Below are positions 2 to 29,900 of a stretch of DNA of 32,000 bases, one piece after another. The notes beneath the pieces are model-generated. The model made no database searches, was not told the DNA's origin, and worked only from the letters and a program-made list of their open reading frames with translations. Made by a program: the position numbers and the translations under genes. The stretch lies in the NCBI GenBank assembly GCA_016196885.1, contig JACPWU010000003.1, positions 30,001 to 62,000 of the forward strand, in the 5' to 3' direction. The stretch comes from Chlamydiota bacterium (lineage in GTDB: Bacteria; Auribacterota; JACPWU01). The stretch's first letter is position 1, and every line of letters begins with the position of its first letter.

Positions 2-3000
2 TTGATAGGATTGATCACATTTGTCGCAGGGGTGATTTTCACACAAGTGACAGGTTTTTCTTTCACATTTCCCTTGTTTATTCTCCTCGAGGTAGTTTCT
101 ATCGTAGTTCCTTCGCTCATTCATGCCATCCATGACATTCGCTTCTGGTTCGGTCATGAAGAATTGACCTTGCATAGTGCGGGCAATGTGTCATTGCAAG
201 ACCTGACCCCAAATAGACTGCTTCAGAAATATTTGGATGAAGGGACCATGCTTCAGATAACACTTGTAAATGGAGCGGGTATACGCGTTTTATTCGGTCA
301 GATTGAGAAGATAGAAGTTTCCGGATATTCCCCAGTTTTTTATTTGAAGGGGTCCCTTTTGCCAGTTCCTATTCAAGATAATGTCAAAGTTAAACCTGTT
401 ACAAAAGCTGAAATCTATAAATCGGTTAGAAAATCTTTGGGGGAACTTGCAGGCGAGTCGTATTTTGGGAAGAAGTTTTTAAAAACATTGATAGAAATTC
501 CAGATGCCATCAACAAGTTTCTGAGTGGGGTGGATAGCCATGGTCAGCTAGAGTTGAAAGAGAGATTTCCAACAGCTGCTCAGTCTTATCAAGGTGCGCT
601 CGCAGCATGCTTTTCTGAAAAGGGGAGTACAAAGCTTGCTTATCTATTGATGAGACAATATAAATTGCCTGATGATCTTCGAAAAAGGGACAGCATTCCC
701 TTTCTTTTCGATGAAAAATTGTCAGAAACGGGAGGGCTTTCAAAATGGGTGGAAGATGTATTTGTTTTAGAGGGAGAAGCTTTTGAAACTTTGATCAATC
801 AGCAATATGAATCAAGTGTCCGATATATTGGGGGAGTATCAGCGATGAAAATGGATGATTTCATTCGGGATGTTGAAGGGGATAAATCAAAATTCAAGAT
901 GTCTCTCATTCATGCGCTGGTGGTCTCTTATAAGGATCTCGAAGGTCGAATGCCTATCGAGACATTTAAGACTCTGCTCGTCAGAGTTGTCATGGAGGCT
1001 TATACGGAATCTCACCTGAAGAATGCGCATCACGCCTTAACCATTGGTTTAGGACTATTGAGGGAAATGAAGTCACCCAAGACATTTTTCAGAGTCTTGT
1101 ATCATGAATTTGGGCATAACCTCCTAGAAATGGTTCATTATTTAGAATACAAAACTTTCTTAGAAAAAGCCCAGAACGAATTAATCAGTGATTTAATGAT
1201 GTGTTCTGTCCAGGGTGAGGGCGTTCATGATATTCGAGAGGCGATTGGATTTTTACAATATGCTTCTGCCGGTATGACGGCCGATGTTAATCGGGGTCAG
1301 GCGTTTAGTCCTCATGATTTGGCAAGGGCCCAATTGATGAAATTATTCAACAGAATTGGAGAGGCAAATGAGCGCCGTGCAAAACAAGGACTTCCAGCGG
1401 TTCGATTGAACTTTAAAGAGTTATTGTTCAGTGCACTGGAGCTGGGTTTTGATGAAAAAGGTGATTTTTCACAGTGGTTTAATCAAGTGATTCAAAAGGC
1501 GTTACGTCCTCAAAAGACTTTTGTGCTGGAAGGGGGAGTAACAGTTTTTTCTCAACAGCAATTAATGACACGATGGGATAAGTTTAAAAGAATAGCCCTC
1601 CTCTCTCTTTATGGTTTAATCCCCGTCGTAGTACTTCCCATCATTATTTTATATAGGTTGCGTATTTTAAAGAAGTCCTTCCTTCAAAATTTTGTTCATT
1701 GGATGAGGGCATTCATCGGTAAACGAGGCCAAGTGAACTCACTGGATTGGCTGCCGGGAGAATTAGAACATCTTGACGTTTCAAGAGGAGTACGATTGTC
1801 AGAAGTGACTGCCAAACGCATTGGAACTCGAGCAAATGAAAAAGATGTCAAATGGGATCGGAGCAATGAAGTTGATATTACAAATGAAGTGCAGGCATCT
1901 TTAATCGAAGTGATTCAGGTTGTGCTTGGAAATGCTCATGTGGATGAGGATGCCACAAGAGCGCCACCGGGTCTGGAAAGACATTCTACATACGAACAAA
2001 TTTTGAGGAACGTTAGCGAGGCTCTCGAACGTGGAAAAATCAGAATTGTTTATGCCGATTTTGACAATGATGATGTTGAGGCGACGCGTGTTTTTGAAGA
2101 CGGTGTGCTGACGGTGGTGATAAATCGAAAGGCCTTAGATTTGGAGATCATCCTCTCCTACGTCGCCCACGAGTTTGGCGAAGAAAAAGCAGGCCTCTTA
2201 CACCCTGAAGTCGCCAGTGGCCTTGAGCCCTTCATTCGCTGGAGGCTTTCCGGAGGAAAGGATTTTATTCCGCGCAGAATAGAACGGGCTGTCGGGCTAG
2301 CTGTCTTAAAAGCATTAAATGGGGATATGACGGCTCAACAATATTTAGAAGATTTTTTAAATGGTTATCAATACGACCGTGAGAAATATGGACGAGAAGG
2401 AGAAGAAGTTGCCAATGAATTCTCTCGCGAGGTTAGGGGATGTTGTGAAGATGCTATTGTGAGAGATATCAGAGAGCTGACTCAATCAGGTTCTCTTTCT
2501 ATTCTTAGGAATATACCTGGAGGGCTTTTCAAACTTTTGATTGACGTGGTTAATTCGTCTGCTCACTACAAAGGAGAAAGTGAGTTGATAGAATTAAGAG
2601 ATAAAATGCTTCAAGAAAGAGGTGTTGATCTAAATAAACCACCTTCTGGGGCGGCAAGATATGCCGATGTATCGGATGCGGTTAAAATCTTAGCGGGAGA
2701 TATCTTACGAGATCCAAAACAAATCACTCTTATTTCTGGCATTCCAGGCTCTGGTAAAACAACATTTGGACAAAGGTTGACAGAGGAATTAAGATCGCGT
2801 TCTTCTTATTTTCGTGTTGAGTTGATTGAAACAGATAATATTCACTCTTCTTTAGAGTATGAAGAAGGAGTGATTTATATCATTGAAGGATCAGCTCTTC
2901 AACAATCCAATTTTCAAGAATATATTGGTAGCTCTATTTTGAAACATGCTTCCCATTCTTCTTTCAGAAGAGTTGGGATGTATGCCCCTGTTGAAGCAGT

Positions 3001-4435
3001 AAAGACAAGAATACAAGGACGGAGCAGGGATAAAATGGATATTGATTTGTACTGGCAGGCCTATGATCGAATGCTTTATTGGTATTTGGCAGAGGATTTT
3101 TCTCAATATCAAATGGTGGTGCTTAATTATTCATTAGGAAAAGAGGGTCTGCAGGAACTTGAAAAAGCAGGCTATCCGATTCTTAGATCTATCGATGATC
3201 AATCTTTACCCCCTCTTCGCCCCGGTCAAGATCGTTACAAAGTCATCACCGTCTGCCGTGCAAATATTTTTAGAAGTCAGATGCTTCAACTTTTCTTGCA
3301 GAAGATGTTTGAAAAATTGGGATTTGGGTCTCTTTTTGAGGTGAGCTCAAGAGGATTCACTGAACATATTTATAGAGATCCATGGCGCACTCTGTATAAA
3401 GAGTATATTCCAACGAGAGAACGTGTCTATTCCTCTTTAGTGGACAGGGGAGGTCCAGGTCGAAGAGCAGCGGATGAATATTATTTTTTAAAAGAAAGGG
3501 CAGAATTTTTAGGAGATGCTGATATTCAATCTGCCAGTTTAATTTTAGTTGCCGATCAGAATATTAAAGATCGTCTTTCAGAAAAGAATCCAGATCTAGG
3601 TGATCGAGTTCGTTTGATGACTGATTTATTTCCTGAGGGTCATGATCTTTATGGAAAAGATTTGCCGGATCTTCCAGTCAATGGACCTGCTGTAGGGATT
3701 CCTTCTTTAAATGGTGCCCAACTCTGGAAACTTTTAGAAGTTGTAATATCCAATTATCAAAAAGCTTTTGTCCAAAGAATAGACCCCTTCTTCTCCGCCT
3801 TTCAGAAATTTCTGCGGTTGAAATTAAAGCCCACCCAAGCGGGTGAGAAGCCGCGCCTTATTATCATGGATGCTGGGATATTGCAGGGGGAGGGGAACGT
3901 TGAAAGAATGAAAGTGACTTTACGTGCTTTGAGAGATGAGATCGAGAGGAGTCAGGATCAAAATCTAAAAGTTTGGATTACGGGCCTAGATGCCCAAGGG
4001 GCTGCCTTAAATTTATTCTCAGAATTTAAAGAAGAAAAATGGTTTAAATTTATGGATTTGACAAGGGGGGATCAAACACTTACGGATCTTCTAGGTGAAG
4101 AAAGAATAGACCATGAAAATGTGACTGCAGCCTATCTTGACCTTGAAGAACACCGAGCTTTTTTTAAGGGCTTAACGATTCAAAAAGTCGTGGTCCGAAA
4201 GCCGGGTGAAGGAGAAATCCTTTCATTCTCTGCTGTTTTCATGGCCTGCCTTGCTGACAATTATGATGAATTACTCGCTCAATTTGATGATCCTGAGCAA
4301 CGCGCTCAGGTAGAGCAAGTGATTGCGCAAGTGAGAGAGGGTAATTTAACGGCTTTGTTTGTGAAACCTGTCCGTGTGTCTGATGCTTTACAAGGGAAGA
4401 TAAGCGCGAGAGAAGAGGCACAGACCAACATGTAG
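2..4435 (+). CDS. 3' part (1477 codons, 5'-truncated by the window edge) of a very large multidomain protein of unknown function
   Basis: This is the longest closed ORF in the track and is open at the left edge; the antisense ORFs are short. Motifs read from the translation: YHEFGHNLLEM (HExxH, nt 1103-1117), hydrophobic IALLSLYGLIPVVVLPIIILY (about nt 1600-1670), Walker A GIPGSGKTT (nt 2738-2764), and CX5R(S) VCRANIFRS (nt 3254-3277). Confidence 0.85.
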   Translation: MIGLITFVAGVIFTQVTGFSFTFPLFILLEVVSIVVPSLIHAIHDIRFWFGHEELTLHSAGNVSLQDLTPNRLLQKYLDEGTMLQITLVNGAGIRVLFGQIEKIEVSGYSPVFYLKGSLLPVPIQDNVKVKPVTKAEIYKSVRKSLGELAGESYFGKKFLKTLIEIPDAINKFLSGVDSHGQLELKERFPTAAQSYQGALAACFSEKGSTKLAYLLMRQYKLPDDLRKRDSIPFLFDEKLSETGGLSKWVEDVFVLEGEAFETLINQQYESSVRYIGGVSAMKMDDFIRDVEGDKSKFKMSLIHALVVSYKDLEGRMPIETFKTLLVRVVMEAYTESHLKNAHHALTIGLGLLREMKSPKTFFRVLYHEFGHNLLEMVHYLEYKTFLEKAQNELISDLMMCSVQGEGVHDIREAIGFLQYASAGMTADVNRGQAFSPHDLARAQLMKLFNRIGEANERRAKQGLPAVRLNFKELLFSALELGFDEKGDFSQWFNQVIQKALRPQKTFVLEGGVTVFSQQQLMTRWDKFKRIALLSLYGLIPVVVLPIIILYRLRILKKSFLQNFVHWMRAFIGKRGQVNSLDWLPGELEHLDVSRGVRLSEVTAKRIGTRANEKDVKWDRSNEVDITNEVQASLIEVIQVVLGNAHVDEDATRAPPGLERHSTYEQILRNVSEALERGKIRIVYADFDNDDVEATRVFEDGVLTVVINRKALDLEIILSYVAHEFGEEKAGLLHPEVASGLEPFIRWRLSGGKDFIPRRIERAVGLAVLKALNGDMTAQQYLEDFLNGYQYDREKYGREGEEVANEFSREVRGCCEDAIVRDIRELTQSGSLSILRNIPGGLFKLLIDVVNSSAHYKGESELIELRDKMLQERGVDLNKPPSGAARYADVSDAVKILAGDILRDPKQITLISGIPGSGKTTFGQRLTEELRSRSSYFRVELIETDNIHSSLEYEEGVIYIIEGSALQQSNFQEYIGSSILKHASHSSFRRVGMYAPVEAVKTRIQGRSRDKMDIDLYWQAYDRMLYWYLAEDFSQYQMVVLNYSLGKEGLQELEKAGYPILRSIDDQSLPPLRPGQDRYKVITVCRANIFRSQMLQLFLQKMFEKLGFGSLFEVSSRGFTEHIYRDPWRTLYKEYIPTRERVYSSLVDRGGPGRRAADEYYFLKERAEFLGDADIQSASLILVADQNIKDRLSEKNPDLGDRVRLMTDLFPEGHDLYGKDLPDLPVNGPAVGIPSLNGAQLWKLLEVVISNYQKAFVQRIDPFFSAFQKFLRLKLKPTQAGEKPRLIIMDAGILQGEGNVERMKVTLRALRDEIERSQDQNLKVWITGLDAQGAALNLFSEFKEEKWFKFMDLTRGDQTLTDLLGEERIDHENVTAAYLDLEEHRAFFKGLTIQKVVVRKPGEGEILSFSAVFMACLADNYDELLAQFDDPEQRAQVEQVIAQVREGNLTALFVKPVRVSDALQGKISAREEAQTNM
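2717..3110 (+). other. P-loop NTPase module, uridine-kinase/phosphoribulokinase-like (domain of the 2-4435 ORF)
   Basis: KQITLISGIPGSGKTTFGQRL ... RVELIETDNI ... VIYIIEGSAL ... RIQGRSRD. The order is Walker A, then hhhhD, then hhhhEG, then an Arg-rich lid. Family assigned by eye only. Confidence 0.5.
3236..3690 (+). other. Low-molecular-weight phosphotyrosine phosphatase / ArsC-fold module (domain of the 2-4435 ORF)
   Basis: YKVITVCRANIFRSQMLQLFL ... FEVSSRGF ... ILVADQNIKDRL ... GKDLPDLP. This matches the V-C-x5-R-S phosphate-binding loop, the S-x-G motif and a downstream acidic loop in the positions expected for LMW-PTPs. Confidence 0.6.
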
Positions 4436-4466
4436 GGACGCGCCTTGAGTTCAGCGTTTCCCTTGC

Positions 4467-4645
4467 TTTCACCTGAAAATAGTCTTTAGTCATTCTTATA
4501 CAATGACTCATGATGACTTGTAGTCGCCCGATTTATCGGGCAATGCCCAATGCCACAATGTCATAGACCGCCCCATAAATGGGGCGACTACAAGGGTAAT
4601 TTTCATCCCCCTTTGTGCCGACCTCAGTCGGCATGAATGTTTCAT
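4467..4645. repeat. Left copy (179 bp) of a long inverted repeat; composite of several hairpins
   Basis: Base-by-base comparison shows 4467-4645 is the reverse complement of 7466-7634, with 2 mismatches (4555, 4611) and one 10-bp indel (4594-4603 is extra here). Internal hairpins: agtcatt/aatgact (4488-4508), gcccgat/atcgggc (4526-4541), cgcccca/tggggcg (about 4569-4586), tgccgac/gtcggca (4616-4633). There is a long-range stem gtagtcgcc/ggcgactac (4520-4528 / 4583-4591) and a tandem heptamer caatgcc x2 (4541-4554). Confidence 0.95.
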
Positions 4646-4674
4646 TGTATGATGTATAGATGTAAGGAGGGGAT

Positions 4675-4950
4675 ATGAGCGCCGTAGGTTTTGTGAGGGT
4701 TAATTTTATTTTGCCCAAAAATCTTTATCAAGCTTTAAAGGCTCTGGTTCCTGAAAGAAAAAGGAGCAAGCTGGTTACAAATTTGATTCAAAAGGAATTA
4801 AAGCGGGTGGAGAACAATCTTTACAAGGTGGCCAGAGCTGTGGAAAAAGATAAGAAGCTGCATCAGGAGATGCAAATATGGGACGTCACCTTAAACGATG
4901 GATTAGATGACCACGAATTTCAAGTTCTGGAAAGGAACACCCTCCGTTGA
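4675..4950 (+). CDS. Ribbon-helix-helix (CopG/MazE-like) antitoxin whose frame now runs on into the first codons of a decayed MazF-type toxin
   Basis: GGAGG at 4666-4670 precedes the ATG at 4675. The N-terminus VRVNFILPKNLYQALKALVPERKRSKLVTNLIQKEL has the RHH strand-helix-helix pattern. The tail QIWDVTLNDGLDDHEFQ resembles a MazF/PemK N-terminus (GdIw.v.l.P..G.E). Confidence 0.55.
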   Translation: MSAVGFVRVNFILPKNLYQALKALVPERKRSKLVTNLIQKELKRVENNLYKVARAVEKDKKLHQEMQIWDVTLNDGLDDHEFQVLERNTLR

Positions 4951-5105
4951 CAATTCAAGTTACCTGCATGGGAAGACCTGCTATTGCAGTGATTGATCAA
5001 ATCAGAGCGGTTGATAAATCAAGAATTGTGAAACTTTGTGATGAGCTTCATTCTCAAGAAATGTTGAGTTTAGAAGCGGCTCTTAGAGCAGTGCTGGGGT
5101 TGTAA
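4870..5105 (+). pseudogene. MazF/PemK-family toxin remnant (internal deletion plus frame change)
   Basis: The N-terminal piece is in the antitoxin frame (MQIWDVTLNDGLDDHEFQ, from 4870). The C-terminal piece is in another frame (codons from 4923): HPPLTIQVTCMGRPAIAVIDQIRAVDKSRIVKLCDELHSQEMLSLEAALRAVLGL, stop at 5103-5105. This is the typical MazF C-terminal half (.dQiR.vDk.Ri....g.l). The central ~30-40 aa (RP.lVvs..TS) is missing, so about 236 nt remain where roughly 330 nt would be expected. Confidence 0.5.
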
Positions 5106-5143
5106 ACGGGTGATGGATATATTTTTTTAAATGAGTAAAATCA

Positions 5144-5166
5144 GATTATATGATAATATGATTATC
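5144..5166 (+). promoter_or_regulatory. Possible operator/promoter of the Phd-VapC operon
   Basis: AT-rich gattatatgataatatgattatc, with ATATGAT repeated at 5148-5154 and 5156-5162, lies just upstream of GGAGG (5173-5177) and the ATG at 5184. TA operons are usually autoregulated at such repeats. No experimental basis. Confidence 0.25.
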
Positions 5167-5183
5167 AGTTCTGGAGGTGTTCT

Positions 5184-5462
5184 ATGAAAAATGTTCTTGC
5201 GGTAACGGAGATGGCTCGGCATTTTGCGGAGTATATCAATCGTGTAGCTTATCGGGGCGAGTGTTTTGTGCTTTTGCGTGGAAAAAAGGCGGTTGCAGAA
5301 ATTAAGCCTGTTTTAGGGGGAAAGCGCCTGAGGGAGTTGCCGGATATTTTAAAGTCGCTGTCTCATTTATCTGAAGAAGAGGCCGTTTCTTTTAGGCGGG
5401 ATGTAGATCTTTTAAGAAGAAAATCCAGGAAAGAATCCTTGAGGGATCCATGGGCGTCTTGA
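5184..5462 (+). CDS. Phd/YefM-type antitoxin
   Basis: MKNVLAVTEMARHFAEYINRVAYRGECFVLLRGKKAVAEIKPV matches the Phd/YefM N-terminal fold pattern. There is a good SD, and the ORF overlaps the downstream PIN gene by 13 nt. Confidence 0.7.
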   Translation: MKNVLAVTEMARHFAEYINRVAYRGECFVLLRGKKAVAEIKPVLGGKRLRELPDILKSLSHLSEEEAVSFRRDVDLLRRKSRKESLRDPWAS

Positions 5463-5854
5463 TTGATTCAAGTGTATTGATAGAGCTTGAAAGGGGTCGA
5501 GAAGACTCTGCAAAGCTGATCAAAGGGCGAGAGGATGATGAGTTTTTTATATCTGTTGTGACCGCGAGCGAGCTACTTCATGGAGTTTTTCGCGCCAAGC
5601 ATGCCAGTGATCGAACCCGACGTTCCGCTTTTGTAGAGGGTGTTTTGGGCCAATTTCCTCTGATTGACATTGATTTGATGGTGGCTCGGATTCATGCCCG
5701 ATTATATTCAGATCTTGAGTCTAAAGGAACTAAAATTGGAATGAAGGACTCTTGGTTGGCGGCCACGGCAATTGCCTATGATCATACTTTGATGACCTTT
5801 AATATAAAAGACTTCAAAAGGGTGTCCGGCCTCAAAGTAGAATCTCCAGGGTGA
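5450..5854 (+). CDS. vapC: PIN-domain ribonuclease toxin VapC
   Basis: MGVLIDSSVLIELERG (first acidic residue), VVTASELLHG, KDSWLAATAIAY and TFNIKDF give the four conserved acidic positions of VapC in the canonical order. The ORF is translationally coupled to the antitoxin. Confidence 0.8.
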   Translation: MGVLIDSSVLIELERGREDSAKLIKGREDDEFFISVVTASELLHGVFRAKHASDRTRRSAFVEGVLGQFPLIDIDLMVARIHARLYSDLESKGTKIGMKDSWLAATAIAYDHTLMTFNIKDFKRVSGLKVESPG

Positions 5855-6811: not shown

Positions 6812-7030
6812 ATGAATACGACATTGACCATACGGATCCCAAGCCGTCTTCGCAGGGAACTCAAGGAGATGAGTAAGCTTGAGCATGTGCCCATGAGTGA
6901 ACTTGTTCGGGTTTCTTTGGCCAATTTTGTTTCTTTGAGAAAATTTCGTAAGCTAAGACAGCAAGTGCTCCCCTTTGCCGAGGCCCAAGGGCTTCTCTCA
7001 GACGAAGATGTTTTCAGAGTTCTTTCATGA
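6812..7030 (+). CDS. Ribbon-helix-helix (CopG-like) antitoxin
   Basis: MNTTLTIRIPSRLRRELKEMSKLEHVPMSELVRVSLANFV shows the RHH pattern. The start is moved from the track's 6782 to 6812 because of the SD spacing. The stop overlaps the PIN start (ATGA at 7027-7030). Confidence 0.65.
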   Translation: MNTTLTIRIPSRLRRELKEMSKLEHVPMSELVRVSLANFVSLRKFRKLRQQVLPFAEAQGLLSDEDVFRVLS

Positions 7031-7434
7031 AGGTTCTTCTGGATAGCAATGTGATTGTTGCTGCCTTTGCGGCTCGTGGATTATGCCATGCCCTATTCGA
7101 GGTTTGTCTCGCAAAGCACCAGATCGTACTGGGCCCTTACATTGTAGATGAGGTCAAAAAGGCCCTTCGAGAGAAGATAAAACTTCCTTCAGGGAAAATT
7201 GAAGAAATAGTTTTCTTTCTTAAATCTCGCGCCTTTTTTGTTGAACCTGTCAGATTATCTGAAAATCCATGTCGTGATGCGAAAGATCTTCAAATTCTCG
7301 CATTGGCTGTGAGCGCAAAAGCGAGGTGCCTTATAACAGGTGATAAGGACTTGCTTTTTCTCAAGAGGTATCAATCCATTTTAATTTTGACCCCGCGTGA
7401 GTTCTGGGATTTTTCTAAAACTTATAAAGATTAA
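7027..7434 (+). CDS. PIN-domain toxin (the PIN family with a GDKDLL motif)
   Basis: MKVLLDSNVIVAAF ... DAKDLQILALAV ... LITGDKDLLFL is typical of the putative toxin PIN family. The gene is coupled to the RHH gene. Its last codons and stop (7432-7434) lie inside the 29-bp direct repeat. Confidence 0.75.
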   Translation: MKVLLDSNVIVAAFAARGLCHALFEVCLAKHQIVLGPYIVDEVKKALREKIKLPSGKIEEIVFFLKSRAFFVEPVRLSENPCRDAKDLQILALAVSAKARCLITGDKDLLFLKRYQSILILTPREFWDFSKTYKD

Positions 7435-17949: not shown

Positions 17950-20900
17950 ATGATAAATTCTTCACCTAAAAGGACCAGAGGGTTCCACCTCGGGTTGAAG
18001 TGTGTTTCCACACTGACCCTGATGGCCTTCTTTTTTACCTCCGTATGTGAAACTTCCCTTTTTGCGCAAGAAGGGTTGAAAGTTGGAAGTTGGAAGTTGG
18101 AAGGAAAGGAAAATAAATCCCCTCAGGTTTTTTCTTCCAACCTCAAACCTCCCACTTCCAACTTGCTTTCAAGCGTCTCTATTCCCTCCGTCAGAGGAGA
18201 TGTCCTTCAGCGTTTTCAAGGTAAAGACGATCGTTTGGTGATTCAACTTCAAGACGTGCATTGCCATTTCGAGGCGCAGTCTAATTCGGCCAAGATTATC
18301 AAAGGGTTAATGGATGAACATGGATCCCATGGGCTTCACATGGTGGCAGTCGAAGCAGCAGGCGAGCCTGTGGACACTTCTCTTTTGACTTCTTTCCCGG
18401 ATCCCAAACTCCGAAAAATGTTTGCCGATTATCTCATGAAAATCGGAAAAATTTCTGGAGCTGAATATCTTTCAATCATTCAAGACAAGCCCCTTCCCCT
18501 CGAGGGAATCGAGAACATGTGGAATTATTTTCGACATGTTGTGCAGTTTAATCAGGGTCAGGTGGTGAAGGAAAAGGCGGAACCGATTTTAAATAAAATT
18601 CAAAAGGCGATTTTAGAATTGCGTAAAAAAGTTTATTCCGCAGAGATGAGGAAGTTTCTGAATCAGTCTGAGGCTTATGAAAAGGGAGATATGGAGTTGG
18701 GGGAGTATATAAAACAGTTAAAAGTTGAAAGTTCGAAGTTGAAAGAAAAAGATAAAAACTCCTTGTCATCTTCCAACATCCAACTTTCAACATCCAACAT
18801 TCCTTCCTCCTCCAGCTATCCCAACATTTCTCTCATGCTCCAGATGAAGAAACTAGAGGACAAAATAGATCTCAAGCAAGTTGAAAAAGAAAGAGTCAAA
18901 CTTTTAGAAGATTTAAGCCACAAACTCGTCAAAGAAGAGATGGTGGAGCTGATGACGAAGAGTTTGTACTACAGACTCGAGAAGATGGATGCGTGGGAAT
19001 ATTATGAATATTTAAAGACTGTCGTGAGTCGTGAGTCGTTAGGGGTGAGGGGTCAGAATTCAACGTTAGAGAAAACTTATCCTAACCTTATGAAATACAT
19101 CGAAATGACAGAAATATTTCACGAGATCAAGAGTGATGAGCTTTTGAAGGAGTGTGAAAAGATATCGGAGGAAGTACAAGATAAGTTGTTAAAGACCAAA
19201 GAAGAAAAGGCGCTCAGGCAAATCGAAAAAGACTTTATTATTTTGAGAAACTTTTTTGAATTGGAGATGAAGAAGAGCGAGTTTCAGTATTATGTGGAGA
19301 ATAAGGAGAGGGTTTCGGCTGAGAATATAGTGGAAGGCTTAGAGAAGTTGGAGGGTCAAGGGTCAAGGGTCAAGGGTCAGGATAACTCCCCTCGGTCCCC
19401 TCTTAATTTAAGAGGGGAGGAAAAACAAAAACAAGAGAGAGAGCAAGTAGAGAGTTCCTCCCCTATTTTAAAAGCGGGGGAAAAGCAAAGGCAGGTAACG
19501 TTCTCTCCCCTTAGTTTAAGGGGAGATGGAGGGGTTACAAATGACGACATCACCTTCCTTGACTCTCATCTCAAATCCCTCGAACAATTCTATCGCTACT
19601 CAGACAATCGTGAAGAGGCGATGGTCCAGAACACGCTCCGGAAAATGAAAGAGAACAAGAGTCCGATTGCGATTTTGTATGCAGGAGGATTTCACACTGA
19701 TGGACTGAGCAAGCGTTTGGAGCAAGAAGGAGTGTCTTACGTCGTAGTTGCTCCGCGCATCACTCAATTCAAACTTAAGACCCCGTATTTATCCATTATC
19801 AAGAATGAGCCTTCGAAATTAGAGAAAATGTTGATGGATTTGAATAAAAAAGAAGGGTCCAACCTGGCTGCGATTTTGATTAGCATGAAGCCGGAGGAAT
19901 TAGAAAAAATTATTTCAGATTTTCAGCTTGCTGACACTGACCTCGTCACTGTTTGGATTCGCGATACGATTCGTTTGCTTCGTACTGATAGAACCATGGC
20001 TCTTTTGATTTTAAAAACCTTGATGCTAAAAGATCAGTTAAAAAATTTAAGTGCCTTGGCTCATGTGGGTGACAAGATTCAGGATTTGGAGAAAAGCTGG
20101 TTAAATGAATTCAAGAGGCTTTCGGGAGAAAATAATTTTAATTCAGAAGAAGTTGAAGTCATTGAATTTAAATTGGATCGAGATGTTGTGGTGAATGGCA
20201 ATACAATCACCCTTCAAGTTTTGATCAGTGGCAAACAATCTTTGACCGTGACTCTAAATGTTCATGAAGGCATCGAACAAATGATGAATCGTATCGAAGA
20301 TGCTTTTAAGCCTGTGGCTCTAATACCTCCGGCTTCAGGAGAAAAGGGGGAAGTAAAAAAGTCAGGAGTGCCGCCATGGGTAAAAGCAGTATTTTCTTTT
20401 TTTCTTGTTTTTTTAACTAAATCGCTTTCTGCGGCTCCGAGTGTTTTTGTCAAAGCCCCTCTTTTTGATCCAGGAATGGATTTGGTTGCCTTGCACAGTC
20501 ATTTTGCGATTTGGGGTTCGATGTGGACGTATGCAGCGGTCATTGCGATCCCGCTCGGATTGGTTTTTATGTTTTGGGCCTTGGGCAAGATTAAGTCTCG
20601 ATGGGTGGAGGCAAGAATAAGAGCGATTGTGGAAGAGGTGGAGCAACCGCAACTTCTTTCAGAAACGATTTCTTCAGGAACAGTTTCTTCCCGAGTTCAT
20701 CTTTTTGATTTTGAATTCGCTTCAGATATTCCTCAATCTGAAAGAGAGCGTGCCTCAGCATTTTTTCAGGATGTTCTAGGTGATGAGCTTCAAATGTGGG
20801 AAAGAAATTTGCTCCGTCAATATCCAGTTTTAGATTCAAGGGAATTGAGATTTCATGTTCGATTTGTAAATGAAACTCCATCTGAAAAATGGGCTCTGAA

Positions 20901-23900
20901 AATGGAAGAGGGAGGTCTGGTTGTTAATTTAGGGGCCTTTCTTTCTGCTAAGGGCGCAAAAGCAAATTTAAGGTCTTATTTTGAAAGACTGAAGGTGGAG
21001 CGTGAAAGAGATTTGTCTGGGCGCAGAGATTTGATTGCACTCCCTCAGCAAGTTTTGAAGGGAGACGGTAGACTTTTTGTTGATTATTCGAGCGGGATTC
21101 GAAAGGTGTTGGTCAGCCAAGAAAACGCAGGTTCTTTATGGAGATTGGCAGGGCAGATCAAGGGACATCCGCAAAGAGTCGTACCTTTGTTGGATCAATT
21201 GGAATCTCAGGCGGTGACAGCTGTTCTTTATGATAGAGAGGGTCAGCCCTTTTCGCTTTTGATCTATGTGCCTGGTTTTACAGATCAGGTCTACGACTGT
21301 CCCTTGATTCGGGACCGGACAAGATATGATGAACTTCTTTCGGTTTATCGTTCGCTCTCTTCTATTCCTTCAGTGGAAATGGTCAGGAGGAATGATGTTT
21401 CTGTAGAAGATGTGAAAGATCTTTTAGGGGACAGAGATCATGTTGAGTTTTTTGTGAGATGGGCTTCAAAGGCGGCAGAGAAGAAGCGTCCTTCTTTCTG
21501 GAATGTTTTGCGTGCTTTGGCATTGTGGATGACAAAGGGAGAGCGAGAACGATTTGATGAGATGCTGGAAAAATACTTTGGCACTTCCTGGTTGGGTCGG
21601 TTGATGGCAATGGGTTTTTGTCTCTTCATAGGGACTGCGTTCAGCGCCATCATCATTGGTTGTCTTGGTTCTCCGACGAAAGCTGATGCAGCTTATTTTG
21701 ATGTTTCGTCTCATGGGGGAACTCTTTCTGCTGAGGTTCAAAAAGCACCTTCTCAGAAAGGGGGAGACGTAGAAAGTGAGGGAGACATTCAGGCGGATAT
21801 CGAAAGATTAGAAAAGGGAATACAAGCTTTAAACGAGGAAAATGCTTCTGCGACCTCAGGCTCTGGCGCAAAAGAAGAGAAAGCACCTCCCGTAGAAGAA
21901 GTAAAAAAGACTGAAGGGGGAAAGAAGAAGGCCGAACCTGAATGGACGAAGAAAAAGAGAGAGGAGTATGAAAGAGATTTGGCAAAAGAGAGAGAGGCTT
22001 TTAAGAAAAAGGCAGGTGCACCTCATTCAGAAAATCTTACGCTTCAGCCTACAGAAAATCTTACTGACTTAAAAGGAAAAATACAGGCGATAGAAGAACA
22101 AAAAAGACTTGAAGAGTTAACCATTGATACCCTCGAATATTTAAGTGCCCAGCTTCGAGTGGAAACCCTGAATCAACAAGCCGCAAGTCTTGAGCAGGAA
22201 ATCGTGGCCTTAAAAGATCAGTTGAATCAGGAAGAAAAACTTTCTCCGACTGATAAAGAGAGTCTTCAGAAAAGACTTCATGGAAAAGAAGAAAAGTTTC
22301 AGACATGTCAACAGTCTCTTCAGGAATTAAACGCTGAGATAAATGCCATGAGGCATGATTCAAAAATCGAAGAGGGTTTTAAAGAAAAATCAGATGAAGA
22401 ATTGGAGAAAGCCATGAAAGGGCATCTTAAGGAATATTTTATTCTTCATGTCAGATTACAACGTTATCAAGCAATGATGCAAGATCTCTTGGGTACAAAA
22501 AAGAGAGATTCCGGTGTTCAAGCGCAATCCAGTTCCTCTGCCAAAGTTCAATTAATTCCTTCTTCTCAAGATTTAAAACCTGCTCAGGGTTCTTCCCCCC
22601 AGAGTTTGCGTGAGTCTATTAAATATTTTATTGAGAGAGGGGTGAAACATTTTGATGAGATGAGTCAGGATGATGATGCGCTGGCCCAGTATCTTTATGA
22701 TCAATATCGTTTGAAGGGCAGGGGTGAGTTAAAAGGAGAAGTTAGGATTGGGTGGCAGAATTATTATTCTTATGGGACTGCTGGATCTGATTCCTATGAA
22801 GCTCAATCGGAAGAGGATGTGGTGGCGACTTTGTTTTTCGACAAGACGATTGATAATGCAAAAAAAGAGCAAATGAAATCAGCCTTTTGGCGTTTAGAAG
22901 CTCAACATCGTATGCAGCTTCAGGGACAATATGACGCCTGGGCTGGGATTTATCAATTGACGGGAGAAGTGCTGAAGGCAAAAGCCAATATTGAAGTTCA
23001 GAAAAAATTTGAGACAGAGGCTAAATCTTTGGTGGATCAAATGCAGGAGCGTTTCTTGAAACCCCGCGAGATGGATGAGGCTCAAGGGGGGGACCCCAGG
23101 ATTTTTCAAACGCGATACTTGAATCGTTGGCATGAAGCTCAGGCCAGCCGTATTCAGGCTGAAGAAGCTTATGAGACAGCTTGCTTAAGACTAAAAGGGC
23201 TTTCCGGAATGGCTGTTGATGATGAGATTCAAATACCCGGCTCTTTGGAGGAGTGGAGTGTATTTGATATTGAATCTCTTTTTAAAGAGATTTCTGAGGA
23301 ATTAAAAAATGAGGGAGTGAATGCAAAGTTTATGGATCAAAGCGTTCAAATTAGCACTGCTTTGGTGAATGAGGCTGCCTTTTGGAAAAAGGAATTGGAC
23401 GAGAATGACGTTTCGCTTGAGATGAAATTGGGAGCAGGCTTACAGGGGCGATGGAACATGGATACTTCGGGTGGTTTTGAATGGCCGTTTAATCCCTTTG
23501 TTTCTGGAGAATTTGAGTTAAAAATTTCTCTCCTCGATTGTGTTGCAAAGGCTCAAGGAAGGGTGGGTGAAGTCATTAATCAAATGGCGGTTCTGAGGAT
23601 GGATGAGGCAAAAAAAGGTTTGTACTTTAAGTATTTAAATGCCCAGGCTGAGCTGGAGGCAGCCCAGAGAATTTTGAAGGTTTTAGAGAAGGTTTTAGAG
23701 GTTGAGTTGAAAGAAATGAGTGTGGAGCCTCCGGTGCTGCAAAGTGATTTGGAGCTTGAGTGGGACCGGATTGGCGTGAGTCGGAATTTGGAGATCGCTC
23801 GCAATGAGGCTTTGGCAAGAATTGCCAGTGCCCGACTCAAAATGACGGGGTACCGCGCTCAGATACCTCCTGAAGAGTTGAAAAAAGTAGACGCGCTCGT

Positions 23901-26900
23901 TGATTTTGATCAATTGTTCGGCCCTGATTTTGGGGCTTTGAATGTTTCAGCTTTTCTCAAAGCTTTGGCCACAGAATGGGTGGGTGGTGAGGTGACGGAT
24001 TTGACTTCTGTTCCGTGGGAAAAAATTTTCCCATCCGACATGGCTGAACGGATGAAAGGAATAAAGGATTATGATCATGATTTAAGAATAGACGCCAATC
24101 AAGATCTCCTGAAAAAAATCATAGAAAAAATGAATGAATTGATTCAACAGGAGGATTTTCTTTTTCGTCATCCCTCTATAGGTTCTTTAAGTTTCGATGG
24201 TTCTGCTATGCAATTTTTAAATATTCTGATTCAGGATGGAGTGCTGAATGCTCAGGACTACCATCCAAAACAAGATTTGACTCCAGAAGAAAAATTCCAA
24301 ATTTATACTTTGAATCGTTTGGTTTTAGAAGAGAAATATCCTGAAGTTTTTAAAGTTCAACTTTCTTTTCCTATCGCAGCCCAGAAGGCTGTTCAAGGTT
24401 CGGGCGCTTTAAGGGGACAAGAGTTGGAGGAACAAGCTCATACCGCACGAGGGAAAGTAGCTTTTAACAGTCGGATTCCGGTTGTTCAGGGAGGGCTGAA
24501 TGTCAATTTTAATCTGGGAACTTATGGGGATCCGATTGGATACCGTTTTGATCAGGGCCAACCGTTCATTGGGGACAATCCTCACGCCCATTTGACTTTG
24601 ACGGGGGGCACCTCTCTTTGGTTGGCGGCGACTGGACCTCTCCCTATCTTTGGAAAAACGTCCGAACAAAGGGCTCATGTGAAGGCTGAAAAGGGATGGA
24701 TTCAAGCGCGTGAAGAGGAAATTACAAATCAATTGATGGAGGGTTTGTATAACGTCTTTAAAAATGTAGCATTGGCTCAATCGGATCTTCAGAGACTTCA
24801 AAAAGAACTTGCAGAATTAAGGGCGTTTAAAGAATTGCTTGAGAGAAAACACACAGAGGTGCCTTTGACTGAAGAGCAATACCTTTCTCAAGCTCAAAAG
24901 GTTTGGCTCAGAATCATGGAAAAGAGAATTGAAATTAACCGCATGGAAAGCACCCTTGAAGGTTATCGGATAGATGTTTTGAGTCGAATGGGTGATGAAC
25001 ATTTAAAAGGTCAATTTCTAGATTGGCCGAAAGAGCCGTCTGAGCAGAGGGCCAGAATGATTCAGATGGGGAAAGAGGTTGCTTCTGGAATAATTCCTCA
25101 ATCTAATTTGAATTTGGAAACCGCACAGGTGAATGTAGCGAGAGAGGTTTTGGGCAATACCAGTGCTGCTCCTACAATCACTTGGACTGTCGGCGCAGCA
25201 GCAGGACCCTCTTTCCCTGAACTTTTCAGAGCTGAGGATCAAAATGAGGCCTGGAGGGTGCTTCCGTTTCTTGCGGGTTGGGTGGGTATTCATGGGACAT
25301 TGCCGCAGCCTGGCCTGAAAAAAGCTCAAGTGAATGCAGCACAACAAAAAGTTTTTGAGGAAGAGGGAGAACTGGAACGGTTAAAACAGGAACAAACAGC
25401 GGAGGAGCTTTTGGACTGGAGAGAGTATACCCGTTTAGAAGTTCAGGTAGATGAAATATCTGAATTGTTAGCGGAGGCAAAATCCCTCTATCAGGATATT
25501 CAGGAAGATTTAAAAATTCCGGGACAGTGGGGGAAGCAGTATCAGCCTGAGAACCTTTTGAGGGTGATGAATTTAATTTCGATGGTTGAAGAGGAATGGA
25601 CTCGTGTGGAGTGGTCCCTCAATGGTTTTAAGCATGTGAATTTAAGAAAGTTGGGTGTGGATGAAAGTAATTTCGAAGAGAGAAAAGCTCAAGCTCTTGC
25701 AAGGCTTGAAAAGGGTGAGGTGCCTCAGACAGGAGTTGCATCTAGTTCTTCGCAAAATCTTGCTCAGGCGCGGTCTCAAACGACTCTCAATCCTCAAGGC
25801 CCGCATTCTTTGATTCAAGTAGCCCAAAGAGCCATTCTCTACCACCCCAATGTGGAAAGCGCTTATTTAAAGGTTCAGGCGCTTGAGGCGAAGAAGAAAG
25901 AGGCTCAAGCCCATAAGTGGCCAGCAGTGACTTTATCTGGGGGTGCGAGGAGTGATTCTCCCAAGCTGGCGAATGAACGCTATCCCTCTATTTATAATAG
26001 CGGATATGCTGGATATGAGCCGGGGATTGAAGGACAAAAACCAGAATGGCCGCCAAAAGTTCAGGCGAGTGGTTCGGCGACAGGCAATGTTCGTTTTTGG
26101 GATGATTCAGAGGTCAGAGAAGTAGAGGCAGAATTAGGGGCGGCTCGAGCAGACTTAATGCAAGCTGTTTTAAATGCTTTTTATGAAAGCGTTCTTCTTT
26201 ACTATGATCTTGTTTTTGAAATGGAAAAAGCCAAAGCTTACTCCCAAGATTCAGAACATAAATATGCCTTGGCGCGGTCCATGTGGTTGAGAGAAAGACT
26301 TTTGTTGGCCTCCCAGATTGATACCCATGAAGTGGGTATTGAAGCCTTAACTTCTCTTTTAAGGCTTTCACCCTCCGGAATGGGGCAGGCTCAAAATCGT
26401 GCCAGAAGTTTGTTGATGATTGATTTTGATTTGGTCCCGTCAGAAGGCCTGCCTGATATTTCTTCTTTGGTGGCTCAAATGCATTCGGTTCTTTCTACGG
26501 GAACAGGCAGTACGGAAATTGAAAATCTTTTAAAAGAATTATGTGCTCGAGATCCAAAGTCGGTTATTTTTCAGGCCTTGGGAGAGAAGGAAAGAGCGGC
26601 CGGGCAGGCGGTTCGTCGCGATCGTCTGGGAACCTGGCAATTGGTTTTTGATTCCCCGGATTGGCGAAAAGGTCAGGTGGAAGCGATGCTGACGTGGACA
26701 AAAGTTTTTTTGGATGGCGGAAAGAAAGAATCAGCGATTCAGTTGCATAAAAGATTGGAAAAGAAGGCAAAAAGAGAGGCAAAAGAATATGAGAGACAAC
26801 AACTTCTCGATGTGGCGCAGGCTTTCAAGGAAGTTCTTTCTCAAGCAGGGCTTTTAGAGGTTGAGCTAGAAAAAATTAAAGTTTCTGAGAAGCAAGTTGA

Positions 26901-29900
26901 GCTTTTAATGGAGCGTTTAGATGTGCCTTCCAACGATCAAGCAAATCCTCATGATCTTAAAACACACGCGTCCGATGTGCAGGACTCTTTTAGCAAATTG
27001 CTTGAGGCCTGGACGATTTTAAGAGATGTTCAAGTGAGTTCTCAAACCGCCGTGGCTGAGATGGAAAGAAGGTTTTGGACACTCAAGAAAACCCTTGCCC
27101 TGGCCCAGGCCCATGGTTCTCCAGATCCTGAACGCAAGAGATATCTGGATGAGGTACAAGCCTTTCTCGATTCAACGCATGTGGCTGAAGTATCTGCAAC
27201 TGCGCCTGTACAGGTCGAGCCTGCGACAAAGCTTTCGACAGAATTAAGAGAGGGATTGAAAGCGCAAAAGGCTTTGGATAAAAAGTTAGAGGAAGGGACA
27301 GAGGAGCCGAGAGTTCCTGTCTCCAGACCCGTCGAGCTTCCCTCTCGTGTGGGAGTTCAAAGGAATCAAGTTCCTGCTTTTAAGAGTCTGGTTCCAGAAC
27401 CGCCTTTGGAATATCAAGCTCGTGACGAGACGTTGCCGGAAGCCAAAAAAGAGAACCATCGTGCAGAGCCAAAACCAGAGGAGCCTCCGAAACCCAATGT
27501 GGGAGAGGAGGAACATACGTTTTTGAATCCGGAGGGCTGGGTGTGGAGGTCTATGCGTTGGTGTAGGGGATGGAAAATAGGACGGTCTATTTTAAATTGG
27601 TTAGGAGAAGATGAGGTTGTAGCTACTTTGGAACGTCTTCATCTTCTTGAAAATGGACAACAATTGCTGCGTCGTCAAAGAGAAATTGAGGTGGATGATG
27701 CCAGTCGTATTAAAGAATTGAAAAAAAAGGGAACCCAGGCTCAGGAGAGAAAAGCAAGGGAAGAACTTCGTGAAATACGAACTCGACTTGAAGAAGAACG
27801 TGAACAGATTTTTGAAGAGCACTATGGGCTTTTTCTTCACACGGTGGATTACACTCAGGCTCATCATGACAAGCTCGAGGAGAGAACGAAAACAGAGCCC
27901 TATATTCTTTGGCGGTCTTTTATTGATCTTCCCATGTTTCCAACTTACCCGGATCCGATTGAGTTGAAAAATGTGCCCTGGATTGTTCAGAAGATGAGGA
28001 ATGCCATGTCTGCAGGTCATTTTTCAGGGATTGATCCTCGTATTATTACGGAAAACGGTTTGAAATGGGTTTTCAACACGTATGGTCAAATTCGGGGTCG
28101 ATCTCCCCAGGACATGAATGATTATTTTGATGCGTGGACTCTTTTGGGATCACATATAGATCAGAAATTGGCTTCTTTGAGAAAGGAGTTGGGTTTAGAA
28201 AATTCAGATGAAAGGGAATGGAATGATTGGCTGAATGGGACTTTTTTCCCGAATGGTTTTGCCTCGACTTTTTCGGGTTTACTCGGGATTGAGCGTTCTT
28301 CAGCTCTGACAGATCAGGAACTTGGAAATCCTCATGCAGGTATCAGGCGCTTGGGCTATTTCAGTGCGTTATCTTCTTTGGCTGTGAAGATGCGACACGA
28401 AAATCCAAAAGATTCCATGGAGACGATGATAGGAAAAATGGTTGCCCCCGGAGGCGATTTAGATCACTCGTTTGACTGGATGAAGACCCGGGCTCTTCAT
28501 TTTGGTCAGGGGACGCTTTCTCTTCAAAGCGACGAGAAATTTATCAAGGATGATCTTCATTATCAGGAAAGTATTTTTGTGGATGAATTCTCTCAATTGA
28601 AAGAACGAAAATTCGCCCAGGCGGTCATTGATCATACCGATGCGGCAAGAATTCTATATTCCGTGATGTATAGCTCTGACTTTGGAATTGTGGATAAGAA
28701 TGGGAGCGGTTTGGAACATGCAGACCTTGAGACTTTAAGACGTAAGCTCTCCATGTCAGATGACTATGAGAGTCAAAGCTTTGTTTTGTCTATTGCCAGC
28801 GTTGCCATGGCACATCATATTTCTCCTGAAAAAATGCTTGATTTAGCCGGTAAGGCCCGCCGTGTGATGGGACCCGAAATTGCAAATATTTATGCGTCTC
28901 GCCTGACGCGTGAGGCCTTTTTGACAGAACCTTATTTTGCTCAGGATGCTGGTAAATTAAGACATCTTGTTCGAGCTCAAAAATTTCATAAGGAGAAGGC
29001 TCAGGCTTTGCTTGCTCAAGGCGATACTGCAATGGCTGCAGAAAATGAGAAAATGGCCAAGGAATATCGAGAACGAGCACAGATAGAAGAGCAGGCTCTC
29101 AAGAAACGTTTGGTGCGTTCCCTTCTCATGTATTGGACAAACTGGGCTGTTGAATTTTTGCTCGAGCGTGAAAAAGATCCCAAGGTTGATCCCATTGAAG
29201 AGTTAAAGAAATTTTTTAGATTGTTACCCCAATATCAGGCAGTGATGAGCAATGATCCGATGGGGCTTTATCCCGATCGGTCTTTTGACATCATGAACCC
29301 CAGGGATTCTGGAGTTCTGGTTTATTGGACGAAAATAGGTGCCATTCGGGGAATGGAGGCCCAGGAGCTTCGAACCCTTCACCATCGCATGGTGTCCATT
29401 GGAAGCATGGATGTTTTTCGGCGTGTATTGAAGCTTTTTGACATTCATGCGGGTAACGAGTTAGATCCAGAAAATAGAGATCAGATGGGAGCGGCCATGA
29501 TGTATGCCGTTAGAGCAAATAAATGGAATTGGGGAGATTCAGACGTGATTCGCTACTTAGAAAATGTAGAGTGGATTTTGAAGAATCAAGAGATGAAGCT
29601 CACCATGATTGAACAGTGGTATTTGGGGGGGGAGGTAGAGAAGGCAGAACGAATGGCTGCCTTTTTTTGGAAGGACATGTCTTCGTTGGAAGAAGTTTTG
29701 ACCGCACGAGCTGGGCGACCCGATCAGGAGTGGCGTGTTTCAAATGATCAATTACGAATGCTTTGGACGGCGGGTCATGAAAAGGCTCAGGACATTGATC
29801 TCAAATATGGAAAAGACTATAAGAAGGCCTTGCTTTATTCAATGGTTAGTTTGGTGGATGAATTTATGGTCCGGTGGGGGGTTGATCAAGTTTCCTTGGT

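Follow-up and report, generated by a model that had tools for sequence, protein, structure and literature searches.

Introduction

Channels of the TolC type are free-standing trimers which meet their inner membrane partners through separate adaptor proteins. Other envelope proteins cover the distance between the membranes within one polypeptide. Domain II of TolA and the spacer of TonB follow a membrane anchor and cross the periplasm as a long charged helical or Pro/Lys/Glu-rich region. VirB10 of type IV secretion is reported to reach both membranes with one chain, and what it inserts is a short helical antenna, present as a 14-mer. In the field of tripartite systems, a large review describes the protomer of outer membrane factors (OMFs) as two structural repeats, and its passages on the matter mention no single-chain form. 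Bucl8 and other OMFs of the NodT type are N-terminal lipoproteins (PMC7682875). The present work concerns a part of a giant open reading frame (ORF) from a Chlamydiota bacterium (GCA_016196885.1), in which hydrophobic segments and a charged helical region run ahead of a TolC-like region in the same frame.

The window, i.e. the whole stretch of DNA analysed, is 32,000 nucleotides (nt) long (C24:30001-62000, contig JACPWU010000003.1) and belongs to a 2.23 Mb, 94%-complete genome. The giant ORF opens with an ATG at window position 17950, directly after an in-frame stop, and runs for 9,029 codons to contig position 75039. Residue n begins at window nt 17950+3(n-1), and all features of the ORF lie on the forward (+) strand. 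The stretch under study comprises residues 807-1551 (window 20368-22602). The reading that we favour, with moderate confidence, is that the chain takes an out-in-out path through the membrane, continues as a helical tether and then forms a single-chain TolC-like duct of six repeats. No published description of this layout was found. Two published accounts of giant genes in Omnitrophota make no mention of TolC, and one of them reports no beta-barrel calls in 916 long proteins.

The TolC-like region

An original prediction for this DNA, made from its letters and ORF translations, had a coiled coil leading straight into the first TolC-like repeat, and the first TolC-like unit does begin at residue ~1553. 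Three protomer-equivalents of two repeats each follow one another over ~1,510 residues. Unit 1 (repeats 1 and 2) covers residues 1553-1975 (22606..23874), unit 2 (repeats 3 and 4) residues 2135-2575 (24352..25674), and unit 3 (repeats 5 and 6) residues 2615-3060 (25792..27129). With the repeat limits set by eye, the same pattern recurs six times: an upper helix of ~22 residues, a beta-hairpin, a helix of 60–70 residues and a helix of ~35 residues. Self-BLAST of residues 1501-3500 detected no internal repeats at the sequence level. An insert of ~160 residues (1976-2134, window 23875-24351) lies between units 1 and 2, while units 2 and 3 are ~40 residues apart.

Against the Pfam family OEP (PF02321, cut-off 22 bits), unit 3 (residues 2601-3100) scores 52 bits in two stretches (E 1e-13), and unit 2 (residues 2101-2600) passes the cut-off with 22.7 bits (E 1e-4). 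Alignment with hhalign to the six TolCs of the genome is collinear over the full length for each unit, with E values of 0.015 for unit 1, 0.02 for unit 2 and 4e-6 (Prob 87) for unit 3, compared with 0.5–0.7 for two other stretches of the giant protein used as controls. A language-model feature search of a protein atlas with residues 1553-3060 returned TolC/OEP-type clusters in 30 of 30 matches (~0.97). Two further approaches were less informative: a hidden Markov model derived from six TolCs of this genome proved too weak, and a beta-strand amphipathicity scan recovered 4–5 of the 12 expected strands and was noisy.

A fold model covers a single unit, unit 1 (residues 1545-2000), and was made with AlphaFold2 guided by a 96-row TolC alignment (predicted local distance difference test, pLDDT, 73.6; predicted template modelling score, pTM, 0.68). 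The model presents its elements in the TolC order, with helices of 71 and 62 residues, helices of 37 and 39 residues, and strands. The protomer fold of OMFs, namely an upper helix, a beta-hairpin, and helices of ~65 and ~35 residues, all occurring twice, is thus present in this guided model. Foldseek matched it to 39 PDB chains at E <= 1e-3, all 30 of the 30 listed being OMFs. TolC itself (1ek9) was found with E 1.3e-9 and a template modelling score of 0.56–0.59.

Known OMFs are homotrimers of two-repeat subunits of about 430–500 residues. As three differing protomer-equivalents stand here in tandem within one ORF, the region is best described as an OMF variant and not as a standard member. 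In a phylum-wide OEP search, the matches listed were all frames of ordinary size, a result with no bearing on other giants. A canonical TolC gene of the genome is found at L001:1456-2955 (-), and its closest named relative, at 60% identity, is labelled as a Chlamydiota metagenome-assembled genome.

Directly after the last TolC-like repeat the sequence reads as a Pro/Glu/Lys-rich spacer (residues 3061-3190, 27130..27519). We take this spacer to resemble the rigid periplasmic spacers of the TonB type, and its presence would fit a module slung between two anchors.

Hydrophobic segments and an internal lipobox

Ahead of the TolC-like region, three hydrophobic segments are found where they had been placed previously, at residues 811-834 (segment 1, 20380..20451), 855-879 (segment 2, 20512..20586) and 1214-1240 (segment 3, 21589..21669). 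Their 19-residue Kyte-Doolittle peaks are 1.56, 2.05 and 2.28, respectively, and their summed insertion energies, on a Hessa-type scale, are +4.9, +0.7 and -1.6 kcal/mol. Based on these values segments 2 and 3 are credible as membrane helices, whereas segment 1 is marginal, carries two internal lysines and probably does not span the membrane. The original prediction of three membrane segments hence retains two of them, and helices of transmembrane (TM) type are present as it requires. The membrane helices themselves are placed at residues 857-879 (20518..20586) for segment 2 and 1215-1240 (21592..21669) for segment 3. Segment 2 has a Trp at both ends. All three segments are helical, at low confidence, in a single-sequence AlphaFold2 model.

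Segment 3 additionally resembles a lipoprotein signal. Its hydrophobic core (residues 1218-1236) is immediately preceded by Arg1217, its C-terminal end carries the lipobox IIGC (residues 1235-1238, nt 21652-21663), and a Ser/Gly/Pro/Thr-rich stretch comes next. This lipobox is the sole match to [LVI][ASTVI][GAS]C in all 9,029 residues, which include 25 cysteines, and its placement at the end of the segment has a P of 0.016 when the segment's own residues are shuffled. A lipobox at the end of the core, behind a basic residue, is the arrangement of a type II lipoprotein signal. Such signals are N-terminal, however, and in this ORF the cysteine stands at residue 1238. The genome has genes for Lgt, LspA and BamA. 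Given its likeness to a lipoprotein signal, segment 3 may therefore either remain in place as a membrane helix or become lipid-modified and perhaps be cut there.

If cutting does occur, the giant protein could be a polyprotein in which segment 3 acts as a working internal lipoprotein signal, and the tether and TolC-like part are released as a lipoprotein from the N-terminal 1,237 residues. The lipobox sits at the appropriate face of segment 3 and leads into what looks like a typical disordered lipoprotein linker, and the presence of Lgt and LspA is also in keeping with such processing. An N-terminal module found in 13 giants has invariant hydrolase-like His, Glu and Asp residues, and cleavage of Omnitrophota giants has been proposed (10.1101/2023.11.21.568195). 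This module matches no protease family, though, and neither candidate junction motif marks a module border, with RSExR giving 0 matches and SLG six, none of them at such a border. Moreover, after a cut at Cys1238, ~20 later segments would still hold the remainder in the inner membrane. Release as a lipoprotein is an unlikely alternative.

Topology and the proposed path of the chain

The N-terminus of the giant protein has the features of a Sec-type signal peptide (residues 1-39, 17950..18066), with a basic n-region, a hydrophobic core and an ending in FAQE. It is predicted to be cleaved and the N-terminal module to be exported. Around segment 2 there are 0 Lys/Arg in the 20 residues before and 5 in the next 15–20, as would be expected of a stop-transfer helix running from outside to inside. 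Segment 3 has 4 Lys/Arg before and 1 after, consistent with a membrane helix that leads from the inside out. The 4,570 residues from 1241 to 5810 contain no other hydrophobic segment, and the next one (5811-5829) has 5 Lys/Arg and 0 Asp/Glu directly after it. Due to these Lys/Arg flanks at both ends, residues 1241-5810 read as lying outside the cytoplasm.

Four cues, the signal peptide, the charges around segments 2 and 3, the charges at the far end, and the lipobox, agree in suggesting that the tether and the TolC-like region lie outside the cytoplasm. In this topology the lipobox is at the periplasmic end of segment 3. A cytoplasmic TolC-like region, which would have been at odds with the original prediction, is therefore not what the topology cues indicate.

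The segment at residues 5811-5829 opens a cluster of seven (L012:3382-4266, residues 5811-6105) in which Lys/Arg-rich and Lys/Arg-poor loops alternate cleanly, with loop charges of 5/0, 5/5, 6/1, 0/0, 7/5 and 0/0. At this cluster the chain would re-enter the inner membrane, 4,570 residues after leaving it. The C-terminal 4,346 residues of the giant protein have no Pfam match, and an OpgH-like reading of the C-terminal membrane region was not reproduced by Pfam.

Taken together, the path that we propose would begin with export of the shared N-terminal module by the signal peptide. Segment 2 would stop transfer and bring the chain back to the cytoplasm, where a 332-residue orphan domain would remain. 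Segment 3 would then re-export the chain as a lipoprotein-signal-like helix, with Cys1238 at the periplasmic face, and would be either retained as a membrane helix or lipid-modified and perhaps cut. The next ~310 residues would form a flexible, charged periplasmic tether made up of one alpha-hairpin of ~55–60 Å and three further helices. This tether would tie the inner membrane to the TolC-like outer membrane duct of six repeats in the same chain, a role like that of the TolA and TonB spacers and unlike that of an HlyD or AcrA adaptor. What the data show directly are the segments, the lipobox, the pattern of helices and the likeness to TolC, and from these the topology, the tethering and any processing are inferred.

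A different topology would follow if the segments were buried helices of soluble domains, or if segments 1 and 2 both spanned the membrane, leaving the helices and TolC-like repeats as a cytoplasmic helical scaffold and not a channel. Composition shuffles of residues 41-5800 equal the hydrophobicity of segment 2 in 13–39% of trials and segment 3 in 2–12%. Natural soluble proteins avoid long hydrophobic runs, and the shuffles thus probably overstate chance. Segment 1 is helical in the model and is placed 22 residues ahead of segment 2, and a published study cautions against relying on TM calls in giants of this kind. Having segments 1 and 2 both span would, however, put 10 Lys/Arg outside and 2 inside, turn the lipobox towards the cytoplasm and require the insertion of segment 1 in spite of its unfavourable energy. 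A cytoplasmic scaffold is further contradicted by the nature of OEP-family proteins, which are outer membrane proteins; among the control genomes the family was matched only in diderms. Overall, we consider a cytoplasmic location improbable.

Several points nonetheless weigh against the tethered duct that we favour. At these shuffle rates in so long a chain, the hydrophobicity of segments 2 and 3 by itself goes only modestly beyond chance, and it is the flanking charges and the lipobox that add to the case. To our knowledge, no established route uses a lipoprotein signal inside the chain. In the paralogues, the charges on either side of the first membrane segment are inconsistent and were not used as evidence, which limits the positive-inside argument. 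In the TolC-like region, unit 1 (residues 1552-2100) stays below the Pfam OEP cut-off with 16.1 bits (E 0.01), a deep TolC profile gives only E 0.005–0.13, although in the right register, and the unit 1 model is not independent of TolC because a TolC alignment guided it. The single-sequence AlphaFold2 model of residues 800-1560 is poor, with a mean pLDDT of 44. Lastly, with no relatives at hand, every inference draws on one sequence and none on conservation.

HMMER with residues 800-1999 found no relatives among 1.84 billion representatives, and neither did a word-indexed search of residues 807-1551 against longer proteins or scans of genome and metagenome contigs for the stretch. The sole match in 40 related genomes was to a coiled coil (E 5e-4) and not to a relative. 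No relative was obtained from 79 genomes of the phylum with residues 2101-3300, or from proteins of similar length with residues 2610-3060, and no look-alike stretches were seen in other DNA windows. Among PDB sequences, the stretch had no meaningful match.

The tether

Charged residues make up 34% of the 313 that follow segment 3, compared with 27% in the whole protein. The first part (residues 1241-1369, 21670..22056) consists of charged low-complexity linkers with helices at 1277-1298 and 1334-1352, the rest being coil in the AlphaFold2 model. A helical block follows at residues 1370-1518 (22057..22503), seen in the model and, in part, in the heptad score, with an alpha-hairpin (1370-1426 and 1433-1468) and a helix at 1482-1518. 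Finally, a Ser/Gln-rich linker that is coil in the model (residues 1519-1552, 22504..22605) leads into the TolC-like region. The five modelled helices, of 22, 19, 57, 36 and 37 residues, alternate with Gly/Pro/Ser/Lys/Glu-rich coil that amounts to ~120 residues. This length would be more than enough to bridge the distance between the inner membrane and the point in the mid-periplasm where a TolC-type tunnel begins.

A crude heptad score marks only residues 1368-1432 and 1437-1470, and the confident part of the model is limited to residues ~1390-1470 (pLDDT 67–92), which form an antiparallel hairpin. The coiled coil of ~300 residues proposed earlier is hence borne out as a charged helical stretch but not at its full length, as the helices of residues 1370-1518 take up ~150 residues and are interrupted by flexible linkers. 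Pfam gives only sub-threshold coiled-coil families for the helical block. The tether had no BLAST match among the TolCs of the genome, one of which carries a long N-terminal extension.

The hairpin (residues ~1386-1479) was compared with 48,161 PDB representatives (VIA-align). The adaptors HlyD (5c21, Z 10.8) and LipC (5nen, Z 10.3) are among the matches, tied with CHMP4B of ESCRT-III, SMC, prefoldin and designed hairpins at Z 10–11.5. As so many unrelated helical hairpins score alike, the shape is generic, and the proposed comparison with adaptor hairpins does not single out HlyD or LipC over hairpins of ESCRT-III, SMC or prefoldin.

The orphan domain and the question of a fused pump

Between segments 2 and 3 lies an orphan alpha/beta domain of 332 residues (883-1214, 20596..21591), predicted to be cytoplasmic from the segments that flank it. 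Its model has mixed helices and strands with a pLDDT <50, and no match to it was found in Pfam, PHROGs, PDB sequences, its own genome or the protein atlas. Residues 807-1214 contain no ABC, RND or MFS family, nor any other Pfam or NCBIfam family. In an inner membrane transporter, the anchor would come with a transporter or ATPase domain that can be recognised, whereas here there are only two membrane segments.

These data, together with the hairpin, bear on whether the uncut chain is a fused tripartite machine, in which an inner membrane component, an adaptor-like coiled coil and a channel work as a single trans-envelope pump or secretion duct. The order of anchor, hairpin and TolC-like duct is that of a pump, HlyD and LipC do occur among the hairpin matches, and membrane segments flank the TolC-like part on both sides. 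Yet the families that define adaptors by their lipoyl and beta-barrel domains (PF16576, PF13437, PF13533) are missing. HlyD_D23, HlyD_3 and lipoyl families have no match in the gene at E <= 0.1, and none in residues 807-1551 at E <= 10. A six-frame search of the genome places adaptor families only in separate genes, on C63, C48, C10 and C23, and on C63, C23 and C10 these ordinary adaptor genes adjoin ordinary TolC genes. The chain has one hairpin, whereas adaptors form hexamers, and the hairpin matches are shared with many unrelated hairpins. No transporter family is found in residues 883-1214 either.

As neither adaptor nor transporter families match, a fusion of three pump parts is not supported, and we view a fused machine as improbable. 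The original prediction of a single envelope-spanning fusion accordingly survives in a reduced form, with membrane segments, periplasm-facing helices and a TolC-like module in one frame. In a bolder version of the tethered duct, the chain would stay whole and be seated in both membranes. The inner membrane would hold it at either end of the 4,570-residue periplasmic stretch, the internal lipoprotein-type signal would provide an extra lipid anchor, and the six repeats would form a complete TolC-type duct. Such a protein would be a conduit across the envelope in its own right, perhaps serving a product of the membrane domains at its C-terminus, but this is a doubtful proposition.

The N-terminal module and genomic context

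Giant ORFs are numerous in this genome. The first ~740 residues of the one described here are common to at least 13 giant ORFs (loci L014-L022 besides this window), with 22–62% identity over residues ~12-750 by BLASTP, and this paralogy ends at residue ~740-750, just ahead of the stretch under study. Twelve paralogous giant ORFs have the signal-peptide ending xFAQE/D as well, as does the canonical TolC of the genome (contig C64). The shared N-terminal module of ~750 residues (18067..20319) is predicted to be exported. D102, H104, Q110, E135, E172 and G579-G580-F581-H582 are invariant in 10 aligned paralogues and resemble an enzyme active site with hydrolase-like His, Glu and Asp. The module had no Pfam match across the 10 paralogues and none in a PDB profile search, and these searches likewise did not confirm a suspected likeness to Tiki/TraB.

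The window also holds, at 2-4435, the 3' part of another giant ORF, whose full length is 6,021 codons. A putative P-loop NTPase signature at residues ~905-958 of the window-internal part shows up only in weak AAA/STAND-type Pfam matches below cut-off. Between this upstream giant ORF and a surface-protein cluster there are two small PIN-domain genes (5450-5854 and 7027-7434; Pfam PIN E 2e-14 and PIN_3 E 1e-12). They are probably toxins of toxin-antitoxin pairs.

Comparison with known systems

The region shares OEP repeats and a TolC-like predicted fold with OMFs such as TolC, OprM, CusC and VceC. It differs from them in that a single chain carries six repeats, where each subunit of their homotrimers has two, and in having a tether of ~310 residues between the cysteine and the first repeat, and ~6,000 more residues with many membrane segments after the module. 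As in lipoprotein OMFs of the NodT type, including Bucl8, a hydrophobic signal with a lipobox cysteine precedes the OMF region. In those proteins the signal is N-terminal, whereas here it is internal, at residue ~1238 of 9,029.

Adaptors such as AcrA, MacA, HlyD, EmrA and LipC also begin with a membrane or lipid anchor that is followed by an antiparallel alpha-hairpin, with ~36–40 residues per arm. The present chain lacks their lipoyl, beta-barrel and membrane-proximal domains and any Pfam adaptor family, carries the hairpin in one copy and matches them only generically. The resemblance to TolA and TonB lies in the anchor followed by a charged helical stretch, with a second, Pro/Glu/Lys-rich spacer after the TolC-like part. 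No C-terminal domain of TolA or TonB was detected here, however, and the far end is covalently joined to its outer membrane module rather than binding to it. If uncut, the chain would also be comparable to VirB10 in combining an inner membrane anchor and an outer membrane part in one polypeptide, although its outer membrane part would then be an entire TolC-type barrel built by a single chain.

We know of no description of this unusual layout, which is read from the sequence features of a protein that has no known relatives. If it is real, it would represent a different way of building and positioning an outer membrane duct, and would raise the question of how such a module gets to the outer membrane. 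It also offers a concrete test case for the giants of uncultured small-celled bacteria, in which it could be asked whether internal export signals are used and whether the proteins are cut or stay whole. Compared with the separate trimers and adaptors of known TolC systems, the channel here would be written into one chain, with an internal lipoprotein-type signal ahead of it and a tether to the inner membrane.

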